Below, piece by piece: positions 2,266-46,743 of a stretch of DNA of 64,000 nucleotides. The notes below the pieces were generated by a model. That model did no database searches. It saw only the letters and a program-made list of their open reading frames with translations, and had not been told where the DNA came from. Origin of the DNA: an uncultured Pseudomonadales bacterium (GTDB taxonomy: Bacteria > Pseudomonadota > Gammaproteobacteria > Pseudomonadales > UBA7239); the NCBI GenBank assembly GCA_964509075.1, contig CAZDWC010000004.1, positions 30,940 through 94,939 on the forward strand. The letters run 5' to 3'. The position numbers were made by a program, and so were the translations under genes. How positions within the stretch are numbered: position 1 is the stretch's first letter; every line of letters begins with the position of its first letter.

Positions 2266-3839
2266 GGCTTCATGTCTTTTGCGACGTATATGTGATATGC
2301 CGGATTTTCATTGTGCTGCACCTGATAAAAATTTTCCTGAACATACCGATTGGTCAACGGATGTGTTCTCGCAAAGCGCCTTTCCTCCTTACCATCCAGC
2401 GCAAGATCGTAAATCAACACAAAACCCGGCTCTGCCTGCTTCAGCCTGGCAATTTCTTTCTGCTCGAATGCCGGTGATTGTGGCCAAAGGGCAAAATTTT
2501 CCCACACAGGAGCGCGCACGCTCATGAGCGCATAAGCGCCAGGCCAGAATGGCGCCACTACGAAACTACGCCCTTCTTTTGCGTATTGGCTGACCAACTG
2601 GCGGATCAGCGCAATATCCTTTGCCGTTGAACGATCAACCTGAATAACGCGGCCACTGACATGTACAGGAACGCAGGCATCCGCACGTCGACACTGCCAA
2701 CCCGGGTGCACCACATGCACCACGCACAGGCTTGTGATTAGCAATAGCAGCACCGACAGCCATTTGACCGCAGGCCGTTGCACCCGTGACAACAAAACCA
2801 TTGCCGCCATCAAGACAGGAAAGATACCTTGCGCGAGATGCGCAATATCGGCACGGGAAAAAGCAACGTGGGCATACGGAAACATGAAACAGACAGACGC
2901 AACAAGCAGCGGGGGTAAATCCCGTCGCCGTACTGACAACGCCAGCCAACCCGCGCACACAGCCGCTGACAACGGTATCGCAACAAAGAACAAACCGACC
3001 AGCCACTCGCGAATTGCCTGCAGCACGGAAAGACGGGCAACATCCGCCGCCCAAGGCCACGGCACAGCAATAGCGAGATTTGTGCTGCTCCTGTTCATCT
3101 GATGCGCAAGATTTTCATGAAAAGCTTCGCGAAATCCTTCTACCCACTGCAACATTGCCATGAGCGGCGAATACCCTATGGACAACCCAAGCAGAAATGC
3201 CGCAGCAAGCCTGAAACGTCTGCCCGGCAGTTGTTGTCCGAAATGCAGCCAAACCATGGCAATGACAAAACCCAACACGAAATAGAGCCCATGGTTGCGA
3301 CCAAAGACCGCTGCGATGCCCGCCCATACTCCAGCCATCAGAAATCGTGCCGCGCAGGGACGTCTTATCAGGAATGAAAGTGCTGCAATCGAAAAGATGG
3401 AAATCACCTCATCGAATATCTTGTGCCTGGGTATCATCCAGGCCAGTAGGATGACTGCAGCAAAGGCGAGAAAGCCGAAGTCTGTTTTTTTCTGTGTCTG
3501 CGCGATCAGAATAAGCGCCACCGACAAACCGAGCGCCTGAAAAACAGCCAGTGCTGTACGCAATGCAGTGATGCCGTCATCCGCCAATAGCGACATGATT
3601 GCCGCGCACCAGTAGTAGCGGCCCGGATCATATGCCTTGAAATCCAGTTTGGGGATCTCGCCTGCCAGCGTCCGCTGGGCGCCGTACCACAAGAATCCCT
3701 CATCCCATAGGTTTAACCCTGCTTTTCCCTGCCATACATAAAGGGACAGCACGAAAAGACAGGCAATCCCGCAAATGGCGACATATGCCGTTCTGCTGTC
3801 CTTGTCACGCTGCATCATTCGGGTGTGCTCACCATCCAA
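2262..3839 (-). CDS. Polytopic inner-membrane protein, GT-C-fold (ArnT/PMT-like) glycosyltransferase candidate
   Basis: 525-aa ORF with about 10 or more hydrophobic segments. A DE-containing first loop ([11 protein letters not shown]) resembles GT-C enzymes, and the C-terminal ~150 aa look soluble. First gene of a tightly overlapping 4-gene set. Family assignment is by architecture only. Confidence 0.55.
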
Positions 3840-18355: not shown

Positions 18356-18817
18356 TCAATTCGCCAGCGCGAGAATGTGCTGCCACTGTGCGACCGTCAC
18401 GGGCGTGATCGATAGGCGGCTACCGCGCGCAATCACTGCCATGCCTTCCAGCTGCGGCTGTTGCTTCAATGTCTGCAGCGAAACCGTCTTCGCGAACTGG
18501 CGCTCGAATTTCACATCGACACGAAACCAGCGCGGATTCTCCGCCGTCGCTTTCGGATCAAAGTATTTGCTCTCGGGATCCTGTGCCGTGACATCGGGAT
18601 AGCCGGCCTTGGCGATTTGCACAATGCCGACGATACCCGGCTCCGCACAATTGGAGTGGTAGAAAAACGCCTTGTCACCCACCTGCATCTCGTCACGCAT
18701 CATGTTGCGTGCCTGATAGTTGCGCACACCATCCCATGGCTCGGTCTGTTTCGGACGCTTCTGCAAATCCTCGATGCCGAAAGTATCCGGCTCGGATTTC
18801 ATCAACCAGTATTTCAC
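18356..18817 (-). CDS. EVE (PUA-like) domain protein
   Basis: 153 aa. MKYWLMKSEPDTFGIEDL...WDGVRNYQARNMMRDEM...FFYHSN is the canonical EVE-domain opening. It starts 3 nt after the phoU stop. Confidence 0.85.
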   Translation of the reverse strand: MKYWLMKSEPDTFGIEDLQKRPKQTEPWDGVRNYQARNMMRDEMQVGDKAFFYHSNCAEPGIVGIVQIAKAGYPDVTAQDPESKYFDPKATAENPRWFRVDVKFERQFAKTVSLQTLKQQPQLEGMAVIARGSRLSITPVTVAQWQHILALAN

Positions 18818-18820
18818 ATT

Positions 18821-19534
18821 TTATTCCTGAACCAGCTTTTCCATCTCCGGCAGGCTGAGATGACGTGCATCCTTGCCTTTCACCAGATAAATGACCTGCT
18901 CGGCAATATTGCGGGCGTGATCGCCAATACGTTCCAGTGAGCGCAGCGCCCACAGCACATTCAGCACGCGCGAAATAGTGCGGGGATCTTCCATCATGAA
19001 AGTGATCAGCTCACGCATTGCTGAACCGTATTCCTGATCCACTTCCTTGTCTTCCCGCGCCACCATCAGCGCCAGATCAGCATCGTAACGCGCAAACGAC
19101 GTCAGCGAATCGCGCACCATGTTGCGCACATGGCTGCCGATATGACGAATCTCGACGTAACCACGCGGCGAATCACCCTGCTCGGAAAGAATAATGGCCA
19201 TCTTGGCAATTTTTGCCGATTCGTCGCCAATGCGCTCCAGATCGCGCACGATTTTTGCCACCGCCAACACCATGCGCAAATCGCTGGCTGCAGGCTGACG
19301 ACGTGCGAGAATGCGCGTGCATTCCTCGTCGATGCTGATCTCGAAATTATTGCTCTGCACTTCTGCCGTCAAAACTTGCTGTGCCAAATCACTGTCGGCC
19401 GTTTCCAGACTCTGGATGCAGTCGAGCAGCTGTTGTTCAACCACGCCACCCATTTGTAGCAAATGCGCTTTCAGCGCCTCCAGATCCGAATTGAACTGGC
19501 GGGAGATGTGCTGATCGAAATTCAAGGTGTCCAT
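18821..19534 (-). CDS. phoU: Phosphate signalling complex protein PhoU
   Basis: 237 aa with two PhoU repeats carrying ERIGDESAKIAK and ERIGDHARNIAE. Confidence 0.95.
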   Translation of the reverse strand: MDTLNFDQHISRQFNSDLEALKAHLLQMGGVVEQQLLDCIQSLETADSDLAQQVLTAEVQSNNFEISIDEECTRILARRQPAASDLRMVLAVAKIVRDLERIGDESAKIAKMAIILSEQGDSPRGYVEIRHIGSHVRNMVRDSLTSFARYDADLALMVAREDKEVDQEYGSAMRELITFMMEDPRTISRVLNVLWALRSLERIGDHARNIAEQVIYLVKGKDARHLSLPEMEKLVQE

Positions 19535-19546
19535 GGCGATCTCCTG

Positions 19547-20422
19547 TCAGCCGAAACGGCCAGTAATGTAGGCTTCTGTCAATTTATGCTGGGGATTGGT
19601 GAATACACGTTCGGTGTCATTCACTTCAATCAGACGTCCGAGGTGAAAATAAGCCGTGCGCTGCGACACGCGCGCCGCCTGTTGCATTGAGTGCGTAACG
19701 ATGGCAATCGTGTAATTTTCGGAAAGCTCGGCAATCAGCTCCTCAATTTTTGCCGTAGCGATCGGATCCAGTGCTGAACAAGGCTCGTCCATCAGAATGA
19801 CTTCCGGATTCACTGCAATAGTGCGCGCAATGCACAAACGCTGCTGCTGACCGCCAGAGAGGCCAGTGCCCGGTTGGTCGAGGCGGTCTTTCACCTCTTC
19901 CCACAAACCGGCACGACGCAAACTGGTTTCGACAATTTCATCGAACTCGATGCGGCGGTGTGCCAGTCCGTGAATGCGCGGCCCGTAAGCCACGTTGTCG
20001 TAAATGGATTTGGGGAACGGATTGGGCTTCTGGAATACCATGCCCACGCGCGCGCGCAACGGCACCACGTCCATCTTGCCATAAATATTTTCCTGCTCGA
20101 GGCAGATGTTTCCCGTTACACGGCAACCGACAATCGTGTCATTCATGCGGTTCAGACAGCGCAGCAACGTGGATTTGCCGCAACCGGAAGGTCCGATCAT
20201 CGCCAGCACTTCATTCTTGGCAATATCCAGTTCAACGTTATAAATCGCCTGTTTCTCGCCGTAAAAAACATTGACATCGCGCAAGGTGATGTTGGGATCA
20301 TCCGTCAACGGTTTGCCGACGGCCTTTTCCGGGTAATCGCTGTTTTTCATCATCGCTGTGCTGCTCGGTTTTGATTGGGCACCCAGTGCCGTTTCGGACA
20401 GGTATTCTGCTGCAGTATTCAT
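19547..20422 (-). CDS. pstB: Phosphate ABC transporter ATP-binding protein PstB
   Basis: Walker [10 protein letters not shown], signature [13 protein letters not shown], Walker B LMDEP. Confidence 0.95.
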
Positions 20423-20423
20423 A

Positions 20424-21731
20424 TTACCACCTCCGTTCCAGACGGTTGCGCAGCCAGACAGCTGCTGCGTTCATGACGACCAGAAATGCCAGGAGCACCA
20501 TGATTGCCGCAGAAGTACGCTCGACAAATGCACGTTCGGAAGAATCAGCCCACAAATAAATCTGCACCGGCAATGCGGTGGCAGCATCGGTAAAGCCCTG
20601 TGGCACATCGACGATAAATGCAACCATGCCGATCATCAGCAGCGGTGCCGACTCGCCCAGCGCGCGCGCCATGCCAATAATGGCGCCGGTAAGCATGCCC
20701 GGCATCGCCAATGGTATGACGTGATGCGTGACCGTTTGCATGTGCGAGGCACCAATACCCAGAGCCGCTTCGCGAATGGAAGGCGGCACGGATTTTATGG
20801 CAGCTCGACTGGAGATGATGATTGTCGGCAGCGTCATGAATGTGAGTACCAGACCACCAACCAGCGGCACTGAACGCGGCATACCGAAAAGGCCAATGAA
20901 GACCGCCAAACCGAGCAAACCGAAAATAATGGACGGCACCGCAGCCAAGTTATTGATATTGACCTCGATGAAGTCCGTGAAACGATTCTTCGGCGCAAAC
21001 TCTTCCAGATATACAGCAGCCGCAACCCCGATGGGAAACGACAACAACAATGTCACCAGCAAGGTCAGCGCCGAACCTGCCAGTGCACTGCGGATACCTG
21101 CCTGTTCAGGTTCACGCGAATCGCCATTCTGGAAAAAAATATTGTTGAAACGCAATTGTACACGACCGTCTTTGATCCATGTGTTCAACCAGGCAATCTG
21201 TTTCTCATTCATGCGCTGCTCGCCCACAATGGCCTCACCATATTCGTGTTTGAAATAGGTATCAGCTTCATCATCCAGCATGATCCATACAGGCTGCTTC
21301 TGACCAAGCAGTTGCGGCTGCTCTCGCAGCAGTTGTCGCACCTGTTCCCCAGCACCAGAGCTCACCAGTTCATACAAGGCCTTCTTGTCGGCACGCGCGG
21401 TGACATCCGGAAACTGCTCCAGCAATGCCGCCTTGATCACGGCATCGACATTGGCGTGCGCCAATTCATCCGCACTGGCGGAAGCAATGCCGAGTTTTTC
21501 CGCATCCAGTGTCACATCTACATGCAACCAGGATTGTCGAAACGCGCTCACGCCCTTGCTGCCAATATCGGCAAACAATACCACCACGCAGGCAATACCA
21601 AAGATAACGGACAGCAAACCGAGAGCGCGAAAAGTTTTTTCCTTGCGATAACGGCGCTTCAGGCTTTTATACACCTGTTCGCGGGTTGTGGCATGGTAGT
21701 CGGCCACAGACGTCTTCATGGAATCATTCAT
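20424..21731 (-). CDS. pstA: Phosphate ABC transporter permease PstA (long form)
   Basis: 435 aa. A large periplasmic insert follows TM1, and the C-terminal part is an ABC permease core. Sits between pstC and pstB. Confidence 0.92.
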
Positions 21732-21737
21732 CAGCGA

Positions 21738-23123
21738 TCACTCGTATTGTTCGCGATATTTCTTGACGATGTGCAATGCGATGACATTGAACAGCAACGT
21801 CACCACAAACAGCACCAGACCGAGCGCAAATGCCGCCAGCGTTTTCGGGCTGTCAAACTCCTGATCGCCTACCAACAGCGTTGCAATCTGCACTGTCACC
21901 GTTGTCACAGCCTCCAGCGGGTTGGCAGTGAGTTTTGCCGACATGCCTGCCGCCATCACCACGATCATGGTTTCGCCGATGGCACGACTCACCGCCAGCA
22001 ACACGCCGCCGACAATGCCGGGCAATGCTGCAGGAATAATCACTTTTGTAATCGTCTCTGCCTGCGTGGCGCCCAGCGCATAGCTGCCGTCACGCATCGC
22101 CTGCGGCACGGCATTAATGACATCATCGGCCAGAGAGGAAATGAACGGGATGATCATCACGCCCATGACAATGCCTGCTGCCAGCGCACTTTCCGATGCC
22201 ACCGCCAGTCCGACGTGTTCGCCCAGTTCACGAATGAACGGCGCCACCGTCAATGCAGCAAAGAATCCGTAAACCACTGTGGGAATGCCCGCCAGCAATT
22301 CCAGCAAGGGTTTCATGACACGGCGCACGGAATGCCCGGCATATTCTGAGAGATAAATGGCAGACATCAGGCCACAAGGTACCGCAACCAACATGGCAAT
22401 CACGGCAATCAGTGCCGTGCCGGCAAACAGCGGCACAGCGCCGAATGCACCGGAAGAACCTGCCTGATCTGCGCGCATGGCAATCTGCGGACTCCACTCC
22501 AGGCCGAACAGGAATGTCCACCACGGCACGGCATGAAAAAAACGCAGCGACTCAAACAGCACAGACAACACTATGCCGATGGTGGTGAGAATGGCTATAC
22601 AGGCACTCGCCAGCAGAAATGCCCGCCCCACGCCCTCCACCTGCAAGCGTGTGCGCACGTGCGGTGCGATGCGAAGCACACTCACGATAAAACCCGCCAC
22701 GGCCAACACCAGCAGCAATGCGCTGACGAGACGCTGATGGCGGATGACAACATCATGATAGATGGCAGCGGCCTGCACTATTTCAGCAGGTTGATCCTGC
22801 GTCGACATGCCTGCCGCAATATTTCTGACAGTGTTCAGCAGCAAATCCTGCTCGCCGGCAGACAGCGCATGCCAACTGGCGGGCACTTGCGTCATCAGCA
22901 TGGCAATATTGATCTTGTCGCCGAACAGCAACCACAACCCTAGCAGGAGGACAGCAGGCAGACCACACCAGATGGCCGCCATCATGCCGTAATAGAAAGG
23001 CAGCGAATTGAGGTGATGAATACCGCCCAACGCCAACCCCATACGCAGGGCGCGCTGCTGGCCTACCACATAAGCCAGCACCACCAGCACCATCAGGCAC
23101 GCAAACAAGGTACCGATGTTCAT
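21738..23123 (-). CDS. pstC: Phosphate ABC transporter permease PstC (long form)
   Basis: 461 aa with a permease core containing the EAA-like loop (SRAIGETM). Confidence 0.92.
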   Translation of the reverse strand: MNIGTLFACLMVLVVLAYVVGQQRALRMGLALGGIHHLNSLPFYYGMMAAIWCGLPAVLLLGLWLLFGDKINIAMLMTQVPASWHALSAGEQDLLLNTVRNIAAGMSTQDQPAEIVQAAAIYHDVVIRHQRLVSALLLVLAVAGFIVSVLRIAPHVRTRLQVEGVGRAFLLASACIAILTTIGIVLSVLFESLRFFHAVPWWTFLFGLEWSPQIAMRADQAGSSGAFGAVPLFAGTALIAVIAMLVAVPCGLMSAIYLSEYAGHSVRRVMKPLLELLAGIPTVVYGFFAALTVAPFIRELGEHVGLAVASESALAAGIVMGVMIIPFISSLADDVINAVPQAMRDGSYALGATQAETITKVIIPAALPGIVGGVLLAVSRAIGETMIVVMAAGMSAKLTANPLEAVTTVTVQIATLLVGDQEFDSPKTLAAFALGLVLFVVTLLFNVIALHIVKKYREQYE

Positions 23124-23208
23124 ACGCCAAACCCTCTCTGCAAAAACATCATGCTCACTTGCTCAACTTGAAATGTTGCGTTCAAACGGTAGCTGTTACA
23201 GACAACAA

Positions 23209-23240
23209 AGCCAGCAGCAGATTTTTACCTGCCGCTGGCT
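23209..23240 (-). terminator. Stem-loop between pstS and pstC (partial terminator or processing hairpin candidate)
   Basis: AGCCAGCAGCAG ... CTGCCGCTGGCT forms a 12-bp stem with one mismatch and an 8-nt loop. It is followed on the minus strand by TTGTTG. It lies 19 nt downstream of the pstS stop. Confidence 0.45.
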
Positions 23241-23258
23241 TTGGTATAGCGCCGGAAA

Positions 23259-24308
23259 TCAGAGTTTTTCCGGCAGGACTTTCAGCACCTTGACATCAGC
23301 GGCAACCTGCTTGCGCTCATCTGTGGTCATCGGAATCATGCCCTTGCCGGCCAGATAACCTTCCTCGCCCCAAGCCGCTTCGGAGGTGAATTCAGCCAGG
23401 AACTGCTCAATGCCTGGCACGCTGCCAATATGGCCTTTCTTCACATAGAAGAACAGTGGGCGCGAAACCTTGTATTCACCGCTGGCAATGGTTTCAAAGG
23501 TCGGCAGCTTGCCGTCGACTTCAGAGCCCTGCACCTTGTCGGCATTTTCTTCAAGGAAGCTGAAGCCGAAGATACCGAAGGCATCCTTGTTGGCAACCAG
23601 TTTCTGTACTATCAGGTTGTCGTTCTCACCCGCTTCAATATAAGCGCCGTCTTCGCGCACGCTTTTGCATTTCTTCGAGTAATCATCCTTGTCGATTTTT
23701 TCCAGATTACCGAGCCATGCATACTGTTTGCAGGAGTCTTCGAGCACCAGCTCAACAAATGAATCGCGCGTGCCGGATGTCGGCGGAGGACCAATCACTT
23801 CGATCTTGGTAGCTGGCAAAGACTTGTCAATATCGCTCCACAATTTGTGCGGGTTATCGACCAGCTTCTCGTCACCATTCTTGGCCGGAATCTGTTTCGC
23901 CAGCGCCAGATAAATCTGTTCGCGCGTCAGTTTCATCACCGGCGCCTGCTTGCTGTTCGCAAAAGCGATGCCGTCGTAACCGATCTTGACCTCGACCACC
24001 TCCTTGACACCGTTCTCCATGCACTTGTCCAGCTCGGACTGCTTGATGCGACGCGAGGCATTGGTGATGTCGGGGGTGTCGATACCCGCACCGGCACAGA
24101 ACAGCTTCATGCCGCCACCGGTCCCGGTAGACTCGACCTTCGGTGTCTTGCCGGAAGCCTTGCCATAGTGCTCAGCCACCACAGTGGAAAAGGGGTAAAC
24201 GGTTGAGGAGCCAACCACGTTGATGGTATCGCGACCCGCTGCAGCGGCAGGCGCGGAGAGGCTCGCAGCCGCAAGGGCTACAGAAGCAAAGGCAAGCAGT
24301 TTTTTCAT
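23259..24308 (-). CDS. pstS: Phosphate ABC transporter substrate-binding protein (PstS family)
   Basis: Signal peptide MKKLLAFASVALAAASLSAPAAAA followed by VVGSSTVYPF. Start chosen at 24308, preceded by GGAGA. The track ORF extends to 24455. Confidence 0.9.
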   Translation of the reverse strand: MKKLLAFASVALAAASLSAPAAAAGRDTINVVGSSTVYPFSTVVAEHYGKASGKTPKVESTGTGGGMKLFCAGAGIDTPDITNASRRIKQSELDKCMENGVKEVVEVKIGYDGIAFANSKQAPVMKLTREQIYLALAKQIPAKNGDEKLVDNPHKLWSDIDKSLPATKIEVIGPPPTSGTRDSFVELVLEDSCKQYAWLGNLEKIDKDDYSKKCKSVREDGAYIEAGENDNLIVQKLVANKDAFGIFGFSFLEENADKVQGSEVDGKLPTFETIASGEYKVSRPLFFYVKKGHIGSVPGIEQFLAEFTSEAAWGEEGYLAGKGMIPMTTDERKQVAADVKVLKVLPEKL

Positions 24309-24396
24309 GGAATGTCTCCGGTAAGCACTGTTCATACAGGGTTTGATTGAAACAGAACGCAGCTTAGGCAGTGGCGGTGACAAGACTATGAACGAA

Positions 24397-24416
24397 TTAT
24401 GACAGTTATATGACAG
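24397..24416 (-). promoter_or_regulatory. Pho box (PhoB binding site) upstream of pstS
   Basis: The minus strand reads CTGTCATATAACTGTCATAA, two direct CTGTCAT repeats 11 bp apart, matching the consensus CTGTCATAWAWCTGTCAY. It lies ~90 nt upstream of the pstS ATG and is followed by CATAGT as a possible -10. Confidence 0.75.
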
Positions 24417-24472
24417 CCGCGCCGTTTCCGGATACTCTTCGCGCCTCTGACACACAGCCCGCCAGGTGACCC

Positions 24473-25111
24473 ATGTTCGGCCGATTCATGCCACGCGAAG
24501 TCAAGTTCTTTGATCTGTTCAACGCCCACACCAAAGAGATAGTACGGGGTGCCGACGCCCTGGTGGCGGTGATGGCGGCCCTCGCCCAGTCGCCGGAAGC
24601 CGCCGCCGCCCACGCCGCGACACTGGATGCCATCGAGGAGCGCGCTGACAAGATTGCCGACGAAACCCTGGCCCTGCTGCACGCTACCTTTATAACCCCG
24701 CTGGATCGCGACGAGATACATCAATTGATCAAGCATCTCGACGATGTACTGGACACCATTCAGGATGCCGGCGGCACGATCAACACCTACGATATCCGCC
24801 GCGCCACGCCGGAGGCTATCCGTTTCTCCGAAATCATCCGCGCATCGGCACAGTGCGTGGAGAAAGCCGTGGCCATGCTCAGCAACATGAAAAATGGCCC
24901 GGCCATCCTCGACATCTGCAAGCAGATCAGCACCCTGGAATCCGATGCCGACTGCGTATTGCGCGAGGCGATGTCCAAACTGTTCCGCGAGGAGCCGGAC
25001 GTGCGCGAGCTGATCAAGCTCAAGGTCATGTACGAACTGCTGGAAACGGTCACCGACTGCTGCAAGCGCGTGGCCACCATCCTGGAAGCCATCGTCCTCG
25101 AAAACTCTTGA
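24473..25111 (+). CDS. DUF47 (PhoU-like, YkaA-type) protein associated with Pit
   Basis: 212 aa. MFGRFMPREVKFFDLFNAHTKEIV is the typical DUF47/TIGR00153-type opening. It sits immediately upstream of a PiT-family transporter, as is usual for this family. Confidence 0.85.
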   Translation: MFGRFMPREVKFFDLFNAHTKEIVRGADALVAVMAALAQSPEAAAAHAATLDAIEERADKIADETLALLHATFITPLDRDEIHQLIKHLDDVLDTIQDAGGTINTYDIRRATPEAIRFSEIIRASAQCVEKAVAMLSNMKNGPAILDICKQISTLESDADCVLREAMSKLFREEPDVRELIKLKVMYELLETVTDCCKRVATILEAIVLENS

Positions 25112-25127
25112 ACGGCAGGTACTGACC

Positions 25128-26135
25128 ATGGATCACCTGACCATGTCTTTCGGCGTGCTGGCCTTTCTGGTGGCCCTGGCACTGGCCTTCGACTTCATGA
25201 ACGGCTTCCACGATGCGGCCAACGCCATCGCCACCGTGGTTTCAACCCGCGTCCTCAAGCCCTACCAGGCCGTGATGCTGGCCACCGTGTTCAACTTCGT
25301 CGCCATCTGGGTGTTCCAGCTCAAGGTGGCCGCCATGGTGGGCAAGGGCACCATCGATCCCTCCATCGTCGACCATTACGTGGTATTCGGTGCGCTGATC
25401 GGCGCCATCGTCTGGAACATCATCACCTGGTATTACGGCATCCCTTCATCCTCTTCACATGCCCTGATCGGCGGGCTGATCGGCGCGGCGCTGGCCAAAT
25501 CCGGCCCGGATGCACTGATCTCGGCAGGCATTACCAAGGCGGTCACCTTCATTTTCGTGTCGCCCCTGGTCGGCATGTTGCTGGGTGGCTTGATCATGCT
25601 GCTGATCTCGTGGGTCTGCCGCGGCACCACGCCACGCAAGGTCGATACCTGGTCACGTCGCCTGCAGCTGATTTCTGCCTCGGCCTACGCCCTGGGTCAC
25701 GGCGGCAACGACGCCCAGAAAACCATCGGCATTATCTGGATGCTGCTGATTGCAGCCGGGGTCTGCGGCAAGGATGAGCACGTGCCGTACTGGGTGGTGG
25801 TGGCCTGCTATGGCGCCATTGGTCTCGGCACCGCCTTCGGTGGCTGGCGCATCATCAAACTCATGGGACAGAAGATCACCAAACTGCGCCCGGTGGGTGG
25901 CTTCGCCGCACAGACCGCCGGTTCCATCATGCTGTTTGCCGCCACCTCCTTCGGCATTCCCGTCTCCACCACACACACCATCACCGGCGCCATTGTTGGT
26001 GTCGGTGCCAACCGCAAGCTCTCGGCCGTGCGCTGGGGCGTTGCCGGCACGATTGTCTGGGCGTGGATTTTCACCATTCCCGCCAGCGCGCTGATCTCGG
26101 CTTGCTGCTGGTGGCTGGGGCGGTTGGTGCTGTAA
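25128..26135 (+). CDS. pit: Inorganic phosphate transporter, PiT family
   Basis: 335 aa. PHO4 signatures GFHDAANAIATVVST and GHGGNDAQK. Confidence 0.92.
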   Translation: MDHLTMSFGVLAFLVALALAFDFMNGFHDAANAIATVVSTRVLKPYQAVMLATVFNFVAIWVFQLKVAAMVGKGTIDPSIVDHYVVFGALIGAIVWNIITWYYGIPSSSSHALIGGLIGAALAKSGPDALISAGITKAVTFIFVSPLVGMLLGGLIMLLISWVCRGTTPRKVDTWSRRLQLISASAYALGHGGNDAQKTIGIIWMLLIAAGVCGKDEHVPYWVVVACYGAIGLGTAFGGWRIIKLMGQKITKLRPVGGFAAQTAGSIMLFAATSFGIPVSTTHTITGAIVGVGANRKLSAVRWGVAGTIVWAWIFTIPASALISACCWWLGRLVL

Positions 26136-27980: not shown

Positions 27981-28056
27981 CAGAAGAGCAGATCATAGTC
28001 GGGCGATCTGTTTCGTCCCAGACGCAGATCAACCTAAGCGGAATGTGGTGTGAGGT

Positions 28057-28344
28057 TCAGGGTGTTGCTACCTGCACATCCCCGAATACCTTGCTCGCGA
28101 CTTTTTCATTGAAGAACATCACCGTGATCTGGTGTTTGTCGTCCTTCCACACCGCCGTGCCCGCTGAAATGCCCAGCGCACCGCCGCCCTGCGACGATTG
28201 CGGTTCACCGAGAATCTTGATCACCTCGGCCTGTGTCATGCCATTGCTGATCTTGCTGAAGTTTTCCTGCGTCAGTTTGGATCCGCAGGCTGCCAGCACA
28301 AGGCTCAGTGCAGCAATCACCAGACAGCGGGAAACAGTTTTCAT
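28057..28344 (-). CDS. Small lipoprotein (SmpA/OmlA-BamE-like fold candidate)
   Basis: 95 aa. Lipobox LAAC, then TQENFSKISNGMTQAEVIKILGEP. Confidence 0.65.
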   Translation of the reverse strand: MKTVSRCLVIAALSLVLAACGSKLTQENFSKISNGMTQAEVIKILGEPQSSQGGGALGISAGTAVWKDDKHQITVMFFNEKVASKVFGDVQVATP

Positions 28345-28365
28345 GGGCGGGCTCCGATGGGAATT

Positions 28366-29022
28366 TTACAATTTGACCGATTCGCGCAGTGCCTGCATGG
28401 CGGCGTGGCGCTGTTCGGCAGTGAGCGGCTGGCGCGGATGTTCGGGCAGGGCCGGCACGGCAGGAATCTGCAGTTCTTCACCGCGCGCCACACGTTCTGC
28501 CAGTTCGCGGTAGTGCTTTTCGTACACAGGATAGGCCTGCTTTTCCGGCGTGCTGGCGAGGAAGAACCAGTCGCTGGCCAGCCCGGCCAGATACACCGCC
28601 GGGTGCGACCATGGCTGCTCTACTTTCGGTGATGGCGCGAGACAGGCTTCGCGGTAGGCGTCACGCGCATCCGGTAATCCGAGCGCTTCGGCTTCCAGGT
28701 ATTTGAGCACGCCGCGCACGGTCGGCAGGTATTCGGATTCGCGCGTAGCCTGGCGGCCAGCCGCCAGGATCTGTTCCGGCGTGTATGCCGCCAGATGCGT
28801 GAGCCACAGACGCTTGGCGTACATCAGCTTTTCCTTGTCGGGAAACGCCTTCTGGTACTGGTTGTGATAGACCAGCGCGAATTCGGCAAACATCTGGTTT
28901 ACCGCGTCGATCACCGCTTCACGGGCCGGGCCAGCACTGGCGGCTACGCGTTGTGAATTTACGTGTTGCGAGTCAGAGGCCATCGGCCCAGCTGCGATCG
29001 GTGTGTGTGGCGATGAATCCAT
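28366..29022 (-). CDS. Replication protein P family protein (phage lambda P-like helicase-loader homologue)
   Basis: 218 aa. Segments FAEFALVYHNQYQKAFPDKEKLMYAKRLW, LGLPDARDAYREAC, WSHPAVYLAG and RVARGEEL match the conserved blocks I recall for Pfam Phage_lambda_P proteins. The start may instead be the internal Met at 28983. It overlaps the upstream gene in either case. Confidence 0.7.
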   Translation of the reverse strand: MDSSPHTPIAAGPMASDSQHVNSQRVAASAGPAREAVIDAVNQMFAEFALVYHNQYQKAFPDKEKLMYAKRLWLTHLAAYTPEQILAAGRQATRESEYLPTVRGVLKYLEAEALGLPDARDAYREACLAPSPKVEQPWSHPAVYLAGLASDWFFLASTPEKQAYPVYEKHYRELAERVARGEELQIPAVPALPEHPRQPLTAEQRHAAMQALRESVKL

Positions 29023-30031
29023 CGGTCTCCCCCTGCCAAGGCTGCTGGTGGCGTCTGGCCCAGCGGTATTTTACATGGTGCAGGAACTTGCTGTTCCAGC
29101 TCGAATGCACCTGCTTGCTGTCCAGCCAGTACAACACGAATTCGCTCAACTGCGCGCGGGCAAACGTCTCGTCGATGGCTGCCATGTGCAGGATGTCATA
29201 GACATCGCCCGACGGCTGCCAGTCAGGGGTAATCGGGCGCGGCGTCGGATCATTGGCCAGCTTGGCGGTGAAAATCGCCCACTGCCGGCGCACATGCTGC
29301 AGGAACTTGCTGTCCCAGGTACTCGACTGCTCGCCGCGCTCGCGCCAGTACAGTACAAACTCGGGCACGCTGTCATCGATGAACTCGCGGCTGACGCCGG
29401 CGCGGGCGAGAATCTCCACCGCATCCGGCCCCGGTATCCAGCCGGCCGTCATCGGAGCGTTCTGGCGCAGGCGCGCGCCGTGCTGTTCCTGTTCGCGCCA
29501 GTTGCGCAAGACCTGCTTGAGAAAACGGTTGCCCCAGGCGTGGTGCGCCTCGCCGCGCTCGCGCCAGTAGCGCACAAACTCCGGCACCTGCTGCAATACA
29601 AAGTCTTGCGCCACCCCCAGTTGCGACAGCTGTCGCAACAACTCGGCGTCCGGCTGCCAGTTGGGTGAAATCAGTGAGGCGCGACCGGTAATGGATGGCG
29701 GTGGCTGGGTTGTTGCGGAAGCCGGCGCGATAGCGGTTTCGCCATCGGCCAGGCTGAAATCCAGCACATGACTGCTCAGATACGGCGCCGAGCGCAACTG
29801 CAAGATGCCTTTGTCACACAGGCTGCCGCTGATGCGCTGCACATCCTGCGGCGGCCAGAAGGGCAGGAATTGCTGCAGGGTCTGCCGATCCACCCGCAGC
29901 CAGCCCTGTTGGGCGCGATGCAGGAACAATTCATGCAGCACGCCAAGCAACACCGCTTCTTCGAGGCCGATGGTGGCAGCCAGCGACGGTGAGATCACCA
30001 GCGGTTTTTCAGGGAGCAGGGAGGAGACCAT
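28973..30031 (-). CDS. Lambda O-like / DnaT-domain protein: N-terminal winged-helix-like region plus three tandem DnaT-type repeats
   Basis: 352 aa. The N-terminal ~90 aa resemble the phage replication-O wHTH (…RISGSLCDKGILQL). Three ~65-aa repeats follow, each containing W(Q/I)P...EFV(R/L)YW(R/L)ERGE...W..KFL.HV...W. Confidence 0.65.
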   Translation of the reverse strand: MVSSLLPEKPLVISPSLAATIGLEEAVLLGVLHELFLHRAQQGWLRVDRQTLQQFLPFWPPQDVQRISGSLCDKGILQLRSAPYLSSHVLDFSLADGETAIAPASATTQPPPSITGRASLISPNWQPDAELLRQLSQLGVAQDFVLQQVPEFVRYWRERGEAHHAWGNRFLKQVLRNWREQEQHGARLRQNAPMTAGWIPGPDAVEILARAGVSREFIDDSVPEFVLYWRERGEQSSTWDSKFLQHVRRQWAIFTAKLANDPTPRPITPDWQPSGDVYDILHMAAIDETFARAQLSEFVLYWLDSKQVHSSWNSKFLHHVKYRWARRHQQPWQGETDGFIATHTDRSWADGL

Positions 30032-30046
30032 GAGAAACAGGGACGC

Positions 30047-30241
30047 TCAGGCGTCGAGGTCGGGAATGAGTTTGCTCTCGATGCGCACAATGGCATCTTT
30101 CAGCCACAATTTTCGCTTCTTCATGCGCTGCAGCAACAGCTGGTCGCAGTAAGGCAATTCCTGCAGCGACGAGATCTCGCCATCAAGTGAACGATGCTCA
30201 TCACGCAGGCGCTGCAGGGTTGTTGTCAGTTCTTCTTCCAT
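30047..30241 (-). CDS. DUF465 (YdcH-like) small coiled-coil protein
   Basis: Only the last 64 aa of the 230-aa track ORF look real: MEEELTTTLQRLRDEHRSLDGEISSLQELPYCDQLLLQRMKKRKLWLKDAIVRIESKL. Confidence 0.75.
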   Translation of the reverse strand: MEEELTTTLQRLRDEHRSLDGEISSLQELPYCDQLLLQRMKKRKLWLKDAIVRIESKLIPDLDA

Positions 30242-30418: not shown

Positions 30419-31159
30419 ATGCCACTGTTCGCCCTTTCTCTTATCCTGCAGGTAGCGTTTGTCCTGCATATCGTCAAAACCGGACGCAATACCACCTGGA
30501 TCTGGATCGTGGTGATGTTGCCCTTCGCCGGCGCCGTGGCTTACCTGATTGTGGAACTGCTGCCGGAATTGCTGGGTACGCGCAGCGGGCGCAAAGCCAT
30601 CCGCAAGGTGGACAGCGTGATCAATCCGGATCGCACACTGAAACAGGCGGCCAATCAGTACGCCGTGGCCGATACTGTTGAGAACTCGCGCCGACTGGCT
30701 GAAGAATGCCTGGACAAACAGCGATTTGACGAAGCGCAATCACTGTATGAAAAATGCCTGAAAGGCCTCTATGAACACGATGCCGTTTTGCTGCACGGCC
30801 TGGCGCGTGCGCAATACGGAAGTGGCAATTTTGCCGATGTTATCCACACGCTGGACAGACTCAAACAGCACAATCCGGATTATCGCGATGCCGATGCACA
30901 CTTGTTGTATGCAAAGGCAATGGATGCACAAAACAAATATCAGGAAGCGCTGCATGAATACGAAGTGCTGGCACGTTATTACCCGGGCCCGGAGGCCAAG
31001 TGTCGCTATGCCTTGTTACTGCAAAAACAGGGCCGGGAAAAAGATGCCGCCGCATTATTTCATGAAGTAGTCACAGCGGCCAAACACAGCGGCAGGCACT
31101 ACCGGGAACTGCACAAAGAGTGGATCGACATGGCAAAGAAAAATACGTCCTCTTCCTGA
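30419..31159 (+). CDS. Membrane-anchored TPR protein with PLDc_N-type N-terminal domain
   Basis: The N-terminus LHIVKTGRNTTWIWIVVMLPFAGAVAYLIVELLPE is the cardiolipin-synthase-N-like two-helix domain. TPR-like repeats follow. Start chosen at MPLFAL. Confidence 0.65.
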   Translation: MPLFALSLILQVAFVLHIVKTGRNTTWIWIVVMLPFAGAVAYLIVELLPELLGTRSGRKAIRKVDSVINPDRTLKQAANQYAVADTVENSRRLAEECLDKQRFDEAQSLYEKCLKGLYEHDAVLLHGLARAQYGSGNFADVIHTLDRLKQHNPDYRDADAHLLYAKAMDAQNKYQEALHEYEVLARYYPGPEAKCRYALLLQKQGREKDAAALFHEVVTAAKHSGRHYRELHKEWIDMAKKNTSSS

Positions 31160-42140: not shown

Positions 42141-43388
42141 ATGAAGCTCAATCTGTCACAGAAATTGCGCATCGGCGGCCACATGCTGCGCTGCCTGCTC
42201 ACGCGCCCGCTGTTCAAGGACTACAATCCGCGCAGCCCGGTGTTTTTCAACAATCCCTATCCTGTCTATCGCCGCATGCGCGACGAGAAACCGATTTTCT
42301 GGTCGCCACACACACTGGGCTGGCATGTGTCCGGCAACTACGAATCAATGGTGCAGCTGCTGAAAGACGACAGATTCACGCACTCGTTCCGCGCCTGGCG
42401 TTTCGCGCCACAGAGCAAACCGCACAGCGAACTCGACGGCCTGCTTGACAGCCTGCTGATGGCGTTGCCGGCGAAGGAACACATGCGCGTACGCAAACTG
42501 GTATCACCGGCGTTTTCGCCGCGCTATGTCTTCGAAGCGCAACCGGCCATCGAGCAGCTGGTACAAACGCAACTCGACAAACTCGATCGCGGCGGCGAAC
42601 TGGATCTGGTGAAACTGTGCCGTGAAATCCCGATCAACGCCATGGCGGTCTACTTCCGCATCCCGGATGCGATGCGCGACGATTTCGGCGCGCTGGGTCA
42701 CGCGATCATTGCGTCATTCAATACCAATGTCGACATGGACATCGCCGCTGCCGAACGCGGCATTCACCAGTTGCGCGAGCTGTTCGCCGAGAAACGCAAG
42801 CATCCCGACGATTCGTTCATGTCGACACTGGTCAACCACATGGAAGACGGCGAACGCATTACCGAGAACGAAGCGCTCGGGCTGATGGGCGCGCTGCTCG
42901 CTGCCGGCGTGGATACCACTTTCGATTACATGCTCAATATTTTTTACGGTTTGACCATGAATCCACAGTGGGGACGCTGGCTGCTCGACAACGAAGACAA
43001 GGTGCAGCAACTGATCGACGAGACGTTTCGCTGGAACAATTTCGGCAATCGCGGTTTCTACCGTTTTGCCACGGAAGATTTCGAATTGCTGGGCCAGAAA
43101 ATCGAAAAAGGCGACATCGTGCAGATCATGATGGCCATGGGCAATTACGATCCGTCGGTATTTCCCGAGCCGGAAACGTTCAACCCCCTGCGTGACAATC
43201 TCGAGAAAGCACTCACATTCGGACTCGGTGCACATTATTGCCTCGGTCACGCGATTGCCAAGCTGATCGCGCAAGTCACCACTCTCGCCGTGGTGCGCCG
43301 TTATCCCGACATGAAACTGATGCGCGGGCCGGAGCGTGAATACAACCTGCTGACGCGTCGCTTGTGTACGCTGGTGCTGAGGAAGTAA
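42141..43388 (+). CDS. Cytochrome P450
   Basis: Heme-thiolate loop FGLGAHYCLGHAIA, I-helix AGVDTT, ETFRW (ExxR). Confidence 0.9.
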   Translation: MKLNLSQKLRIGGHMLRCLLTRPLFKDYNPRSPVFFNNPYPVYRRMRDEKPIFWSPHTLGWHVSGNYESMVQLLKDDRFTHSFRAWRFAPQSKPHSELDGLLDSLLMALPAKEHMRVRKLVSPAFSPRYVFEAQPAIEQLVQTQLDKLDRGGELDLVKLCREIPINAMAVYFRIPDAMRDDFGALGHAIIASFNTNVDMDIAAAERGIHQLRELFAEKRKHPDDSFMSTLVNHMEDGERITENEALGLMGALLAAGVDTTFDYMLNIFYGLTMNPQWGRWLLDNEDKVQQLIDETFRWNNFGNRGFYRFATEDFELLGQKIEKGDIVQIMMAMGNYDPSVFPEPETFNPLRDNLEKALTFGLGAHYCLGHAIAKLIAQVTTLAVVRRYPDMKLMRGPEREYNLLTRRLCTLVLRK

Positions 43389-43406
43389 ACCTCCTCGCCC
43401 AAACCA

Positions 43407-43529
43407 CCCCGCCCCAGACCACCCCACCCCTGCGGGGTACCCCTCCTTGAAAAGGAGGGGAGTTGGAGATGTGGCACGGCCAAACTCTCCCCCTGCCAAG
43501 GGGGAGTGGCGCGTAGCGCCGAGGGGGTT
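43407..43529. repeat. Left copy of ~122-bp direct repeat flanking the DUF559 gene (string of GC-rich mini-hairpins)
   Basis: Contains CCCC-TGC-GGGG, CCCCTCCTT-GAAA-AGGAGGGG, CTCCCCCT-GCCA-AGGGGGAG and GGCGC-GTA-GCGCC. It aligns end to end with 43935-44056. Confidence 0.8.
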
Positions 43530-43564
43530 ACAATCCCAACCTCGACACCCAGGGATGGCGTGCC

Positions 43565-43978
43565 ATGCAAAAAATCAACAACATTCCCGCTTTGCGTTTC
43601 TTTCGAAAATCGCTGCGCAACGGTCTCACGCCGGCAGAGGCCAAATTGTGGCTGCACCTGAAACAGTCGCAACTGCAAGGGCGAAAATTCAGACGGCAAC
43701 ACAGTGTTGGACCCTATATTCTCGATTTTTATTGTCCTGCCGAACGTCTGGCTGTTGAGCTGGATGGCGCCGCGCATGATTCCATTGACGCAAGGGAATA
43801 TGACCGTGAACGGGATTTGTTTATTGCGTGCTTCGAAATAAAAGTTTTGCGCTTTGAAAACCAGTGGGTGTTTCTGGAGACGGAGGCAGTGTTGATGGAA
43901 ATTCAGCGACATTTTGGTTGGCTGGCAGAAACAACCCCGCCCCAAACCACCCCGCCCCTGCGGGGCACCCCTCCTTGA
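43565..43978 (+). CDS. DUF559 (Vsr-like endonuclease fold) domain protein
   Basis: 137 aa. LTPAEAKLWLHLKQSQLQGRKFRRQHSVGPYILDFYCPAERLAVELDGAAHD is the typical DUF559 core. The last ~14 codons are encoded by the right repeat copy. Confidence 0.85.
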   Translation: MQKINNIPALRFFRKSLRNGLTPAEAKLWLHLKQSQLQGRKFRRQHSVGPYILDFYCPAERLAVELDGAAHDSIDAREYDRERDLFIACFEIKVLRFENQWVFLETEAVLMEIQRHFGWLAETTPPQTTPPLRGTPP

Positions 43979-44056
43979 AAAGGAGGGGAGTGAGATGCGC
44001 GGCACAAACAAACTCTCCCCTGCCAAGGGGGAGTGGCGCGTAGCGCCGAGGGGGTT
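43935..44056. repeat. Right copy of ~122-bp direct repeat flanking the DUF559 gene
   Basis: It carries the same four hairpins in the same order as 43407-43529. By eye, differences are three point substitutions, one ~15-nt variable patch and one 1-nt indel. Confidence 0.8.
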
Positions 44057-44134
44057 GGTTCTTGAGAAGTCCCACGCAACCGGGTGGAGTTGTGCTTGCG
44101 TTAGAATACCGTCGTTAATCTTTATGGAGTTGCC

Positions 44135-45343
44135 ATGAGCCGTACCCGTTTTCTCGCTTCCATCGCCGCGCATGTGCCGTGGACTGCTGCGCAGTTGCTG
44201 GCAGAATCGACCTTGATGCGCACAGTAGCCAAACGTCCGGCTCGGGCAGGCGAGCGCCCGTGGGGTCATCGTCACGAACGCATCAGCGCCGAATGGCTCA
44301 CCGATGTTTTGCGCAAACAGCAGGCACTGAACAACGATCAACACGTCACGCGTTTTTCGTTGCAGCGTTTCGGTGAAATCGGCCAGATGTCGGCGGTTTA
44401 TCGTCTGGCACTGGATTACAGCGATGCTGTTGCAGCCCCGCGCACATTGGTGCTGAAAACGACCACCACCGAAATGAAAAACCGCATCTTCAACAGCTGC
44501 TTCGGTGTGTTTGAACGCGAAATTTGTACGTATCAATTACCACATCCCGAGCGCGGTTTGTTGCGGCCGAAATGCTGGTACGCCGGCCAGCAGCCGCTGA
44601 CGCGCGCCGGCTTTCTGATTTTTGATGATCTCGCCGAGTGGCGCGGTGTACCGGCCTACACCAAGCTCGGCATGGACGATGCGCTGCGTGTTGCAGTGGC
44701 GCTCGCCGAACACCACGCGCAATGGTGGGAAACGCCGGCGCTGCTTCAATCCGGTTTCCGCACCACGCTGGAAACCGTGCAGACTACCATGGGGCCGATG
44801 TGCAGCATGGCCTGGGGCAAGGCGCGCAAGGTGATGGCGGAGCTGGTCGACGCCGACATCGTCACGTTGCTCGGACGTTATGTCGCAAACCAGCAGGCGG
44901 TATGCCACCACATCATGGCGGGCCCGCGCACGCTGGTTCATGGCGATCTCAACACCAACAATATGTTTTTCGATGATGCCCAGCAGCGCGTCTGTGCCAT
45001 CGACTGGCAATCCACCCACATCGGCAGCTGGGCGGAAGATCTCGCCTACCTCGCGCTGATGTGTCTCGCCCCCGAAGACGCCGCCGCACACGAGCAGGCA
45101 TTGATCGACCTGCATCGCAACACCCTCGCCGCCAACGGCATACGCGTGGATGCCGATGCCCACCAGCGTGCCTATCCGCTGGGTGTGCTGCAGGTGGGCG
45201 CCATGCTGATTGTGGCAGCCATGGTGATAGACAAGGACAAGGATCCTACCTTGTACGAGCAGTACCGCAGCACCATCAGCGGCTGGGCGGAGGCTGCACG
45301 CCGCCATCGCCTCGACAGCGTGCTGGCCGGGCTGGGCGCATGA
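44135..45343 (+). CDS. Phosphotransferase-family kinase (APH / choline-kinase / EcKL-like fold)
   Basis: 402 aa. Catalytic loop HGDLNTNNMFF and metal-binding CAIDWQS. Confidence 0.72.
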   Translation: MSRTRFLASIAAHVPWTAAQLLAESTLMRTVAKRPARAGERPWGHRHERISAEWLTDVLRKQQALNNDQHVTRFSLQRFGEIGQMSAVYRLALDYSDAVAAPRTLVLKTTTTEMKNRIFNSCFGVFEREICTYQLPHPERGLLRPKCWYAGQQPLTRAGFLIFDDLAEWRGVPAYTKLGMDDALRVAVALAEHHAQWWETPALLQSGFRTTLETVQTTMGPMCSMAWGKARKVMAELVDADIVTLLGRYVANQQAVCHHIMAGPRTLVHGDLNTNNMFFDDAQQRVCAIDWQSTHIGSWAEDLAYLALMCLAPEDAAAHEQALIDLHRNTLAANGIRVDADAHQRAYPLGVLQVGAMLIVAAMVIDKDKDPTLYEQYRSTISGWAEAARRHRLDSVLAGLGA

Positions 45344-46743
45344 GCGAACCCGCGCACAATCCCCATCGCGGTCTGGTGATAGCGGTGATGGTGGCGGTAT
45401 TTCTCGCCGCCGTGGACCAGACCATCGTCTCCACCGCATTGCCGCGCATAGCCAACGATCTGGGCAACACCGCGCTCTACGCCTGGGTGTTCACGGCCTA
45501 CATGGTGGCCACCACGGTGTTTGTGCCCATCTCAGGCACCATCGGCGACACCCATGGCCGCCGGCCGGTGCTGCTGTTCGGCGTCGTGGTCTTTGCCATC
45601 GGCTCGCTGTGCGCGGGCAGCGCGGCGTCCATGCCGCAGCTCATCGGCTTTCGCGCCCTGCAGGGCATCGGTGCCGGCGTGCTCACCGCCAATGCTTTCG
45701 CCCTGCTAGGGGATGTCTACTCGGCAGCCGAGATGGCGCGCGCCAGCGGCATCATGTCGGCGGTTTACGGGCTGGCCGGCGCCGTGGGGCCGGTGCTGGG
45801 CGGTGTGCTCACCGATCAATTCGGCTGGCGCTGGATTTTCTGGCTCAACGTACCGGCCTGTCTGGCGATTGCCGTCATTCTGTTTGTACGCCTGCCGCAC
45901 AAGCCGGCGGCCAGCCGCGATCCGGTCGATATCCCCGGCGCGGTATTGCTCAGCGCGGCCCTGCTGCCGGCGCTTGCCGCGCTGAGCTGGGCGGGCGAAG
46001 GCGTGGCGTTTGGCGACACGCGCATGCTGGCCGCCCTGTTGGCCGCACTGGTCTTTGGCGTGTTGTTCGTGCGCGTGGAGCGCCGCGCCGTGCGGCCCAT
46101 CATCGCCCTGCACCTGTTCCGACACGCTACCTTCACGCTGGCGCTGCTGGCCATGTTCGGCGTGGCACTGGCCATGTACGCAGCGCTCTCCTATGCGCCG
46201 CTGCTGTTCCAGAGCCGCATGGGCATGAGCGCATCGCAATCCGGCCTGGTCACCGCGCCGCTGGTGCTCACGCTGTCGGTCACGGCGGCGGTGGCGGGCA
46301 GGCTGGTCGCGCGCGGTATGAGTGTGCGCTGGGTTTCAGCGTTGGGGGTGGCGATTGCTGCTGCGGCACTCGGCTGGTTATCGTCACTGGCACCCGATGC
46401 TGGCAAGGGCACGGCCGCTGCCGGCATGGCGCTGTTCGGCGCCGGCCTCGGTTTCACCATGCCCACCTTGCTGCTGGCGGCACAGGGCGCCGTGCCGCAC
46501 GGCCATATCGGCGTGACGGCCGCTCTGGCCAAGTTTTTCCGCGCTGTGGGTGGCCTGGTAGGCGTAGTGGCCGCCGGTGCGGCGATTCGTCACTTTCAAA
46601 CAATCAATACGCAGGCGATCAGCACCCAGCCGGGCGATGCACTTTCTTCAACCATCGGCTGCGCTGCGGTGGCGATGCTGGCCACATTGTTGTTGATTCT
46701 GGTGCTGCCGAAACCCGCGAGTGAAACACCCAGCTCGCGCTGA
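45340..46743 (+). CDS. MFS transporter, DHA2 (14-TMS, EmrB/QacA-like) type
   Basis: DQTIVSTALPRIANDLG opening and motif A GTIGDTHGRRPVLLFG. The ATG overlaps the kinase stop (ATGA). The track ORF start at 45061 lies inside the kinase gene. Confidence 0.9.
   Translation: MSEPAHNPHRGLVIAVMVAVFLAAVDQTIVSTALPRIANDLGNTALYAWVFTAYMVATTVFVPISGTIGDTHGRRPVLLFGVVVFAIGSLCAGSAASMPQLIGFRALQGIGAGVLTANAFALLGDVYSAAEMARASGIMSAVYGLAGAVGPVLGGVLTDQFGWRWIFWLNVPACLAIAVILFVRLPHKPAASRDPVDIPGAVLLSAALLPALAALSWAGEGVAFGDTRMLAALLAALVFGVLFVRVERRAVRPIIALHLFRHATFTLALLAMFGVALAMYAALSYAPLLFQSRMGMSASQSGLVTAPLVLTLSVTAAVAGRLVARGMSVRWVSALGVAIAAAALGWLSSLAPDAGKGTAAAGMALFGAGLGFTMPTLLLAAQGAVPHGHIGVTAALAKFFRAVGGLVGVVAAGAAIRHFQTINTQAISTQPGDALSSTIGCAAVAMLATLLLILVLPKPASETPSSR

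Follow-up and report, generated by a model that had tools for sequence, protein, structure and literature searches.

The 64,000-nt stretch of contig CAZDWC010000004.1 analyzed here (assembly GCA_964509075.1, an uncultured Pseudomonadales bacterium; hereafter the window, meaning the whole stretch) carries two overlapping genes, dopC and dopE, encoding a protein with three DnaT-type repeats and a lambda-P-family protein. We consider it likely that the two form a resident module, i.e. a phage initiator/loader pair turned into a vertically inherited chromosomal operon, which loads the DnaB helicase with DopC as an adaptor. Judged by its sequence, the locus is a bona fide dopC/dopE ortholog, an example from an uncultured lineage of a kind already described by Brezellec et al. 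2017 (PMC5509034); a preliminary description of this DNA had rendered that study accurately, and the locus matches what it describes. A group of marine and soil bacteria seems to have taken over such lambda-type replication genes for loading its replicative helicase. According to these authors, dopE is always preceded by dopC, DopC combines a helix-turn-helix (HTH) N-domain with a DnaT C-terminal motif (they speak of ‘a domain’), and the pair occurs in non-prophage contexts without iterons or DnaA boxes, replication starting near gidA-dnaA (PMC5509034). Their dopCE genes came from Cellvibrionales and some Oceanospirillales (PMC5509034), and the system was proposed for a clade without dciA and dnaC (PMC5509034, PMC11087808). 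Later papers cite DopE merely as a proposed loader and report many Cellvibrionaceae with lambda-P-like loader genes (PMC11087808, PMC12661323, PMC12214026).

The relationship of DopE to lambda P was recovered via Pfam and PHROG profiles, a structure model and hhalign. DopE matched PF06992 at 47.2 bits (cut-off 26 bits) over 160 of the 162 profile positions, which bears out the earlier assignment to the replication-protein-P family, and PHROG 109, which it also matched, is annotated as ‘P-like helicase loader’. The AlphaFold2 model, based on 40 homologs, had a mean predicted local distance difference test (pLDDT) score of 85.9 and comprised a disordered region (aa 1–30), helical blocks at 31–113 and 119–179, an extended segment (180–201) and a terminal helix (202–215). 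Its top fold matches in the PDB were the lambda P chains of the DnaB-P complex 9oa1 (E 4e-5, probability 1.0), followed by the N-domain of the SPP1 loader G39P (probability 0.98). An alignment of the DopE family profile with lambda P spanned 175 columns and extended from domain II as far as the C-terminal segment, thus through domains II–IV, with DopE aa 180–218 placed on lambda P 190–228 and the pattern GE.L..P...LP....PL...helix...GL shared at the C-terminus. A phmmer search of DopE against PDB sequences returned a chance JetA match alone and missed lambda P. The C-terminal segment of lambda P acts as a DnaB-binding lasso (PMC12661323), and from the fold and profile matches together we infer that DopE would bind and open DnaB in the manner of lambda P.

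The start of dopE is supported by the MDSS N-terminus, which is kept in close homologs. An alternative start at Met14 was considered, most homologs being ∼202 aa long, and was discarded: MDSS is conserved, and an insertion in the disordered N-region accounts for the extra length. This insertion, of ∼16 aa at aa ∼15–33, distinguishes the DopE of the window from its closest homologs (201–205 aa) and lies in a poorly conserved part of the protein. The N-terminal region of lambda P forms a second ‘lasso’ touching DnaB.

The DnaT C-terminal-type domain that characterizes DopC proteins was found in three PF17948 stretches, as the preliminary description had proposed. In the AlphaFold2 model (mean pLDDT 83.2), a winged helix (aa 15–94, pLDDT >90) is joined by a disordered linker of variable length (97–115) to three three-helix bundles with a 73-aa period and a short tail. 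The bundles matched the structure of DnaT84-153 bound to single-stranded DNA (ssDNA; 4ou6, probability 0.99) and further DnaT chains (4ou7, 2ru8 and 9zbu). Residues Y127, W128, K133, F135, K143 and R146 of E. coli DnaT are critical for ssDNA binding (PMC4132743). Like DnaT, each DopC repeat has the aromatic pair and one basic contact residue: the Tyr-Trp pair is kept as Y155/W156, Y228/W229 and Y301/W302, the three tryptophans being invariant among 40 DopC homologs, and the equivalent of K143 is basic throughout (R169, K242 and K315). DopC differs from E. coli DnaT, which has an N-terminal oligomerization domain and a single C-terminal domain (CTD), in its three tandem CTD-type domains and its different N-domain. 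In the preprimosome structures of 2026, lagging-strand ssDNA is surrounded by a filament of several DnaT CTDs, each CTD-CTD interface binding two nucleotides (PMC13377028); by analogy, a single DopC chain with its three CTD-type domains would make up a segment of this kind of filament within one molecule. The number of repeats varies within the family, from three in the window and in Marinimicrobium to four in Microbulbifer thermotolerans (L013:10001-11308). A subset of DopC homologs is 438–478 aa long, near the length of the four-repeat Microbulbifer protein.

The preliminary description had also assigned DopC an O-like winged-helix N-terminus, of which the winged helix was borne out as a predicted fold, and no homology to lambda O was detected. 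The fold was supported by the AlphaFold2 model and by Foldseek matches to winged HTH regulators and phage replication proteins. Neither Phage_rep_O nor HTH_36 of Pfam matched the N-domain at E ≤0.1, and because hhalign produced no alignment of the DopC family profile with either lambda O or an HTH_36-type O-like protein, the label ‘lambda-O homolog’ was dropped. The N-domain has relatives elsewhere among phages: Stenotrophomonas phage StM171 encodes a ‘replication initiation protein’ that aligned with DopC from residue 4 across the N-domain and one DnaT-type domain (hhalign probability 99.2%, E 1e-19), and StM171 relatives HXX_Dennis, Suso and QH16 matched DopC by tblastn. The homology with such Stenotrophomonas/Xanthomonas phage initiators (StM171, HXX_Dennis, Suso) thus covers the N-domain and a DnaT-type domain.

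DnaT-type domains are found in further viral proteins. PHROGs 1408 and 1032, both annotated as ‘replication initiation protein’, matched the DopC repeats, and a 265-aa protein with two DnaT domains is encoded at positions 2862–3659 of an IMG/VR contig (L021; IMGVR_UViG_3300037424_000596), amid phage-type genes for DNA methyltransferases, an SNF2-type helicase and a DUF1367 protein. This viral protein is 52% identical to DopC repeats 2–3 and has a different N-domain. With one or two DnaT repeats, the StM171-type and L021 proteins are unlike DopC, which has three. It was tentatively proposed in 2017 that DopC gained its DnaT domain from a cellular primosomal gene after domestication (PMC5509034). 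Because such domains are present in phage initiators already, there is no need to derive those of DopC from a cellular gene, and the sequence comparisons suggest that DopC inherited them from its phage ancestor and that they were not a later graft. DopC-type and P-type genes stood side by side neither in the GenBank phages examined nor on any of 49 IMG/VR contigs that carry a P-like gene, and these phages and contigs did not yield a direct ancestor of the pair. On these 49 contigs, P-like proteins were at most 48% identical.

DopC has a conserved C-terminal tail. All 40 aligned homologs end in ...TDRSWA(xGL), with W348 invariant and T344, D345 and S347 conserved in at least 90%. Lambda O likewise ends in a Trp tail (TNTDWIYGVDL; L071:187-1086), and apart from this tail DopC has no detectable homology with it. 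The O-like protein gp63 of Pseudomonas phage PAJU2 (L020:2614-3423), encoded directly upstream of a P-like gene, ends in NDTSWAVGLEQDLF, and this tail was the sole part of gp63 that aligned with the DopC profile. A tryptophan was present within the last 12 residues in 11 of 29 non-redundant open reading frames (ORFs) directly upstream of viral P-like genes, vs 25 of 191 control ORFs on those contigs (p 0.002, Fisher test), and in these 11 it usually follows an acidic/Ser/Thr run. The two-domain viral protein of L021 ends with an LTDRSWAE tail; the StM171 initiator has no such Trp tail and no adjoining P-like gene. In lambda, the C-terminal part of O contacts P. Given this contact and the shared tail, the DopC tail is proposed as a DopE docking peptide, an idea that we regard as a lead and not as a result. 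The new element in this analysis is a Trp tail that DopC has in common with lambda O and other initiators beside P-type loaders, and that may serve DopC as its docking site for DopE.

The closest relatives of DopC were in metagenome-assembled genomes labeled ‘Pseudomonadales bacterium’ and ‘uncultured Cellvibrionales’ (72–88% identity), followed by Marinimicrobium (51–53%), Pseudomaricurvus (45–47%) and Microbulbifer (37–39%); further named relatives of DopC/DopE were from Gilvimarinus, Spongiibacter, Cellvibrio, Porticoccus, Thalassocella and Exilibacterium. The nearest named records for the ArgS protein of the window were from Spongiibacteraceae (72–75%). Because the relatives of DopC/DopE and of ArgS fall there, the host is, on this affinity, an uncultured Cellvibrionales-type gammaproteobacterium. 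In all 15 related genome loci, at 37–88% identity, dopC was directly followed by dopE on the same strand, and among them was M. thermotolerans, which the original dopCE study had included. The pair is thus conserved as such across genera; vertical conservation had been suggested earlier, for the four-gene block, as an argument for domestication. The flanking genes varied across the 15 loci: a downstream gene for an FAD-binding oxidoreductase was kept by the closest clade alone, the DUF465 gene adjoined the pair only in the window and in L001, the closest genome, and the small lipoprotein gene only in the window and in L003. Since the latter two adjacencies were each confined to two loci, the conserved unit is of two genes and not the four-gene block first envisaged, and the DUF465 and lipoprotein genes were rejected as conserved partners and are taken as lineage-specific neighbors.

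In the comparison with L001, the ratio of nonsynonymous to synonymous substitution rates (dN/dS) was 0.09 for dopE, 0.08 for dopC and 0.13 for the neighboring oxidoreductase gene, and dS was alike in the three (0.89–1.0); values from more distant pairs were saturated (dS >1.5) and were excluded from inference. Low dN/dS together with similar dS indicates strong purifying selection and a shared divergence depth, as for vertically inherited resident genes. The ranking of DopC/DopE identities also ran parallel to those of the neighboring gene and ArgS. In its two-gene order, its P-like protein encoded downstream of an HTH and DnaT-type protein, its non-prophage setting and its host clade, the locus resembles the DopC/DopE of PMC5509034; dopC is likewise without iterons or DnaA boxes, and the pair is orthologous to that of M. 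thermotolerans. Unlike the published examples, it comes from an uncultured lineage and is followed by the oxidoreductase gene common only to its closest relatives, and its DopC has three repeats where the Microbulbifer protein has four.

It was suggested earlier that the pair might be a remnant of a degraded prophage. Phage homologs do exist for both proteins, and the four-gene neighborhood is not conserved. Yet a decaying lambdoid replication remnant without cellular function is hardly credible and is largely refuted: both frames are intact and under the purifying selection described above, the pair stays together over genus- and family-level divergence, and its best phage relatives are just 27–48% identical. 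The setting points the same way. A Pfam scan of essentially every long ORF in the window found no integrase, repressor, terminase, structural or lysis genes, so that the lack of phage genes reported earlier for tens of kb extends to the entire window, and the pair lies among cellular chromosomal genes. No tRNA genes were found in the window, and the GC content of the locus (0.60–0.63) is like that of adjacent housekeeping genes. There were no tandem repeats or iterons, the sole DNA repeats being a 219-nt period in dopC that results from the three protein repeats. Counts of DnaA boxes were at chance level across the window, with no cluster and none within the locus; in keeping with a DopC gene that is not itself an origin, dopC contains neither iterons nor DnaA boxes. 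The lone perfect DnaA-box consensus, TTATCCACA, lies at 30840–30848, in a TPR-protein gene ∼600 nt upstream of the dop operon. The locus shares with phage lambda O/P an initiator-type gene directly upstream of, and overlapping, a P-family loader gene, but it has neither phage neighbors such as repressor, nin-region, lysis and structural genes nor the iterons in the O gene that mark a lambdoid prophage module, and DopC is without the Phage_rep_O domain and the Phg_2220_C-type C-domain. Among the scanned ORFs of the window there was no DciA (PF05258) and no DnaC/IstB-type protein.

A second alternative raised earlier was a stress or defense module. In an anti-phage or stress module, a resident P-like protein would tie up DnaB, or vie with the loaders of incoming phages, and so block phage replication, and the DUF465 and lipoprotein genes would be accessory stress genes. 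The 2017 study did speculate that a domesticated viral loader could jeopardize phage replication (PMC5509034), and in this genome the pair is co-oriented with both genes. We nonetheless find such a module very unlikely, given that these two genes are not conserved neighbors, that the distribution of the pair is clade-wide and syntenic rather than patchy, and that no family of PADLOC-DB 2.0 matched the six proteins tested (locus and flanks).

Under the reading that we favor, DopE would bind the DnaB hexamer of the cell with its globular domains and with the ‘lasso’ helix at its C-terminus and open the ring for loading on ssDNA, filling the role held elsewhere by DciA or DnaC. DopC would be the adaptor: its three linked DnaT-CTD-type bundles would be a single-chain version of the ssDNA-wrapping DnaT filament, its winged-helix N-domain would supply DNA or partner contacts, and its Trp tail would dock DopE-DnaB. 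The helicase would in this way be delivered to exposed ssDNA at a DnaA-opened oriC and/or at abandoned forks. Several observations weigh against this proposal. The template modeling scores (TM-scores) of the DopE model to lambda P were low (0.35–0.45), which is expected because a model of the free monomer was compared with lambda P extended around DnaB, and the hhalign E-value of the DopE profile against the single lambda P sequence was only 7e-4. The ssDNA-binding set of DnaT is kept in part, the equivalent of K133 being acidic in DopC and that of R146 basic in repeat 1 only. Tail docking is built on a short motif that was defined after the data had been seen and on the modest enrichment given above, and the viral protein of L021 has the same tail yet no P-like gene within 4 kb. 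Finally, the literature searched contained no experiments on DopC or DopE, and the statement in the preliminary description that the system lacked experimental validation still holds there.

A competing view is that dopCE serves primarily in replication restart, as a functional counterpart of dnaT-dnaC, the E. coli operon of the PriA-dependent primosome, with oriC loading done by something else or by nothing; at abandoned forks, DopC would assemble on lagging-strand ssDNA and bring in DopE-DnaB. All strongly recognizable domains of DopC are of the DnaT CTD type, and in E. coli, where dnaT and dnaC form one operon, the DnaT CTD filament passes ssDNA for DnaB/DnaC recruitment (PMC13377028). The gene order is alike in both, a gene for a protein of the DnaT-CTD ssDNA-binding type standing just upstream of that for a phage-derived DnaB loader, and fork reactivation was among the possibilities named in the 2017 study (PMC5509034). 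However, DopC is without the DnaT N-terminal domain and scored 24.7 bits on the DnaT equivalog (NCBIfam PRK02854; cut-off 201), with the CTD region alone matching, and the loader is P-type, unlike the AAA+ protein DnaC. Moreover, the clade is reported to have no other loader, and DopE would therefore still be needed at oriC (PMC5509034, PMC11087808). We judge a restart-centered role unlikely but treat it as a serious alternative, the more so as initiation and restart roles are not mutually exclusive. A broader form of our own proposal joins the two: DopC would be a single-chain mimic of the DnaT filament whose lambda-O-type Trp tail hands DopE-DnaB to ssDNA in both initiation and restart, and dopCE and the enterobacterial dnaT-dnaC operon would have arisen in parallel by domestication of phage ‘organizer + loader’ cassettes, with DnaT derived from a phage initiator. 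Both DnaT-type domains and this tail exist in phage initiators. This we put forward tentatively, as a possibility on the doubtful side.

The features of the locus are listed in Table 1. The four same-strand ORFs of the preliminary description were found at exactly the coordinates that it gave, and the overlap of the P-like gene with the gene upstream is genuine. Overlaps of similar size were present in the closest relatives, and a Shine-Dalgarno-like GGGGGAG lies inside dopC ahead of the dopE ATG; together with the overlap, this element suggests translational coupling. The DUF465 gene is separated from dopC by 15 nt and dopE from the lipoprotein gene by 21 nt, with GGAG ahead of the lipoprotein ATG. 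Downstream, the transcription unit likely ends at the hairpin, and the four genes probably form one transcript in this genome.

Table 1. Features of the dopC-dopE locus (positions in the window).
Feature	Positions	Strand	Evidence or remark
DUF465 gene	30047-30241	minus	PF04325, E 1.9e-15 (Pfam)
dopC, 352 aa	28973-30031	minus	PF17948 DnaT, three stretches, E 3.3e-70
DopC N-terminal domain, aa 1-95	29747-30031	minus	predicted winged helix-turn-helix
DnaT-type repeat 1, aa 120-192	29456-29674	minus	aligns with E. coli DnaT 4ou7/4ou6; Foldseek 4ou6 probability 0.99
DnaT-type repeat 2, aa 193-265	29237-29455	minus	Pfam and PHROG stretches; three-helix bundle in model
DnaT-type repeat 3, aa 266-338	29018-29236	minus	best Pfam stretch 266-330; three-helix bundle in model
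DopC C-terminal tail, aa 339-352, motif TDRSWADGL	28976-29017	minus	candidate DopE docking peptide
dopC/dopE overlap, 50 nt	28973-29022	minus	dopC 3' end and dopE 5' end
dopE, 218 aa, lambda-P family	28366-29022	minus	PF06992, E 2.8e-12; PHROG 109, E 7e-24
dopE C-terminal segment, aa 180-218	28369-28485	minus	coil 180-201 and helix 202-215 in model
Small lipoprotein gene, 95 aa	28057-28344	minus	weak BamE/BLIP-type matches
Terminator-like hairpin, then T-rich tail	27989-28010	minus	3' of lipoprotein gene

On one side of the locus, the window encodes Mfd, HslVU, a SulP permease, PtsP, a NUDIX hydrolase, GST and a LysA-type decarboxylase and, further, an EVE-domain protein, PhoU-PstBACS, a PhoU_div/PHO4 pair and the FAD-binding oxidoreductase. 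The other side holds genes for TPR, ADH, DoxX, pirin, LysR, PhoH, YkuD, M15 peptidase, NMO and photolyase proteins and, further, P450, MFS, thiolases, UDG, HrpB, ArgS, SPOR and FadB-like proteins. Two phosphate-uptake systems stand back to back beside the locus (18821–26135), namely a phoU-pstBACS operon on the minus strand (18821–24455) and a PhoU_div/PHO4 (PitA-type) pair on the plus strand (24473–26135); the EVE-domain protein, which stands alone (18356–18817; PF01878, E 4e-59), adjoins phoU. An ORF of 525 aa that lies between mfd and a WbqC-like gene (2262–3839) had no Pfam match even at E 0.01. Two long minus-strand ORFs at 43301–45439 (411 and 300 aa), also without a Pfam match, overlap a plus-strand ORF at 44135–45343 that matches EcKL/APH-type kinases; over this interval the plus-strand kinase-type gene is probably the real one and the minus-strand ORFs at least partly spurious.

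To our knowledge, every bacterium studied needs a factor that puts the DnaB helicase onto DNA. Among free-living groups, Cellvibrionales-type bacteria are the main one for which both known loader families are reported to be missing, and dopCE is the sole candidate in them. The locus described here adds a dopCE ortholog from an uncultured lineage and provides a sharper, testable mechanism for the proposed third type of helicase loader, its testable parts being the C-terminal lasso of DopE for DnaB, the three DnaT-type ssDNA modules of DopC and the Trp tail as the likely DopC-DopE contact. A phage origin of the DnaT-type domains of DopC, as suggested above, would bear on how often cells rebuild replication initiation and restart from phage parts.

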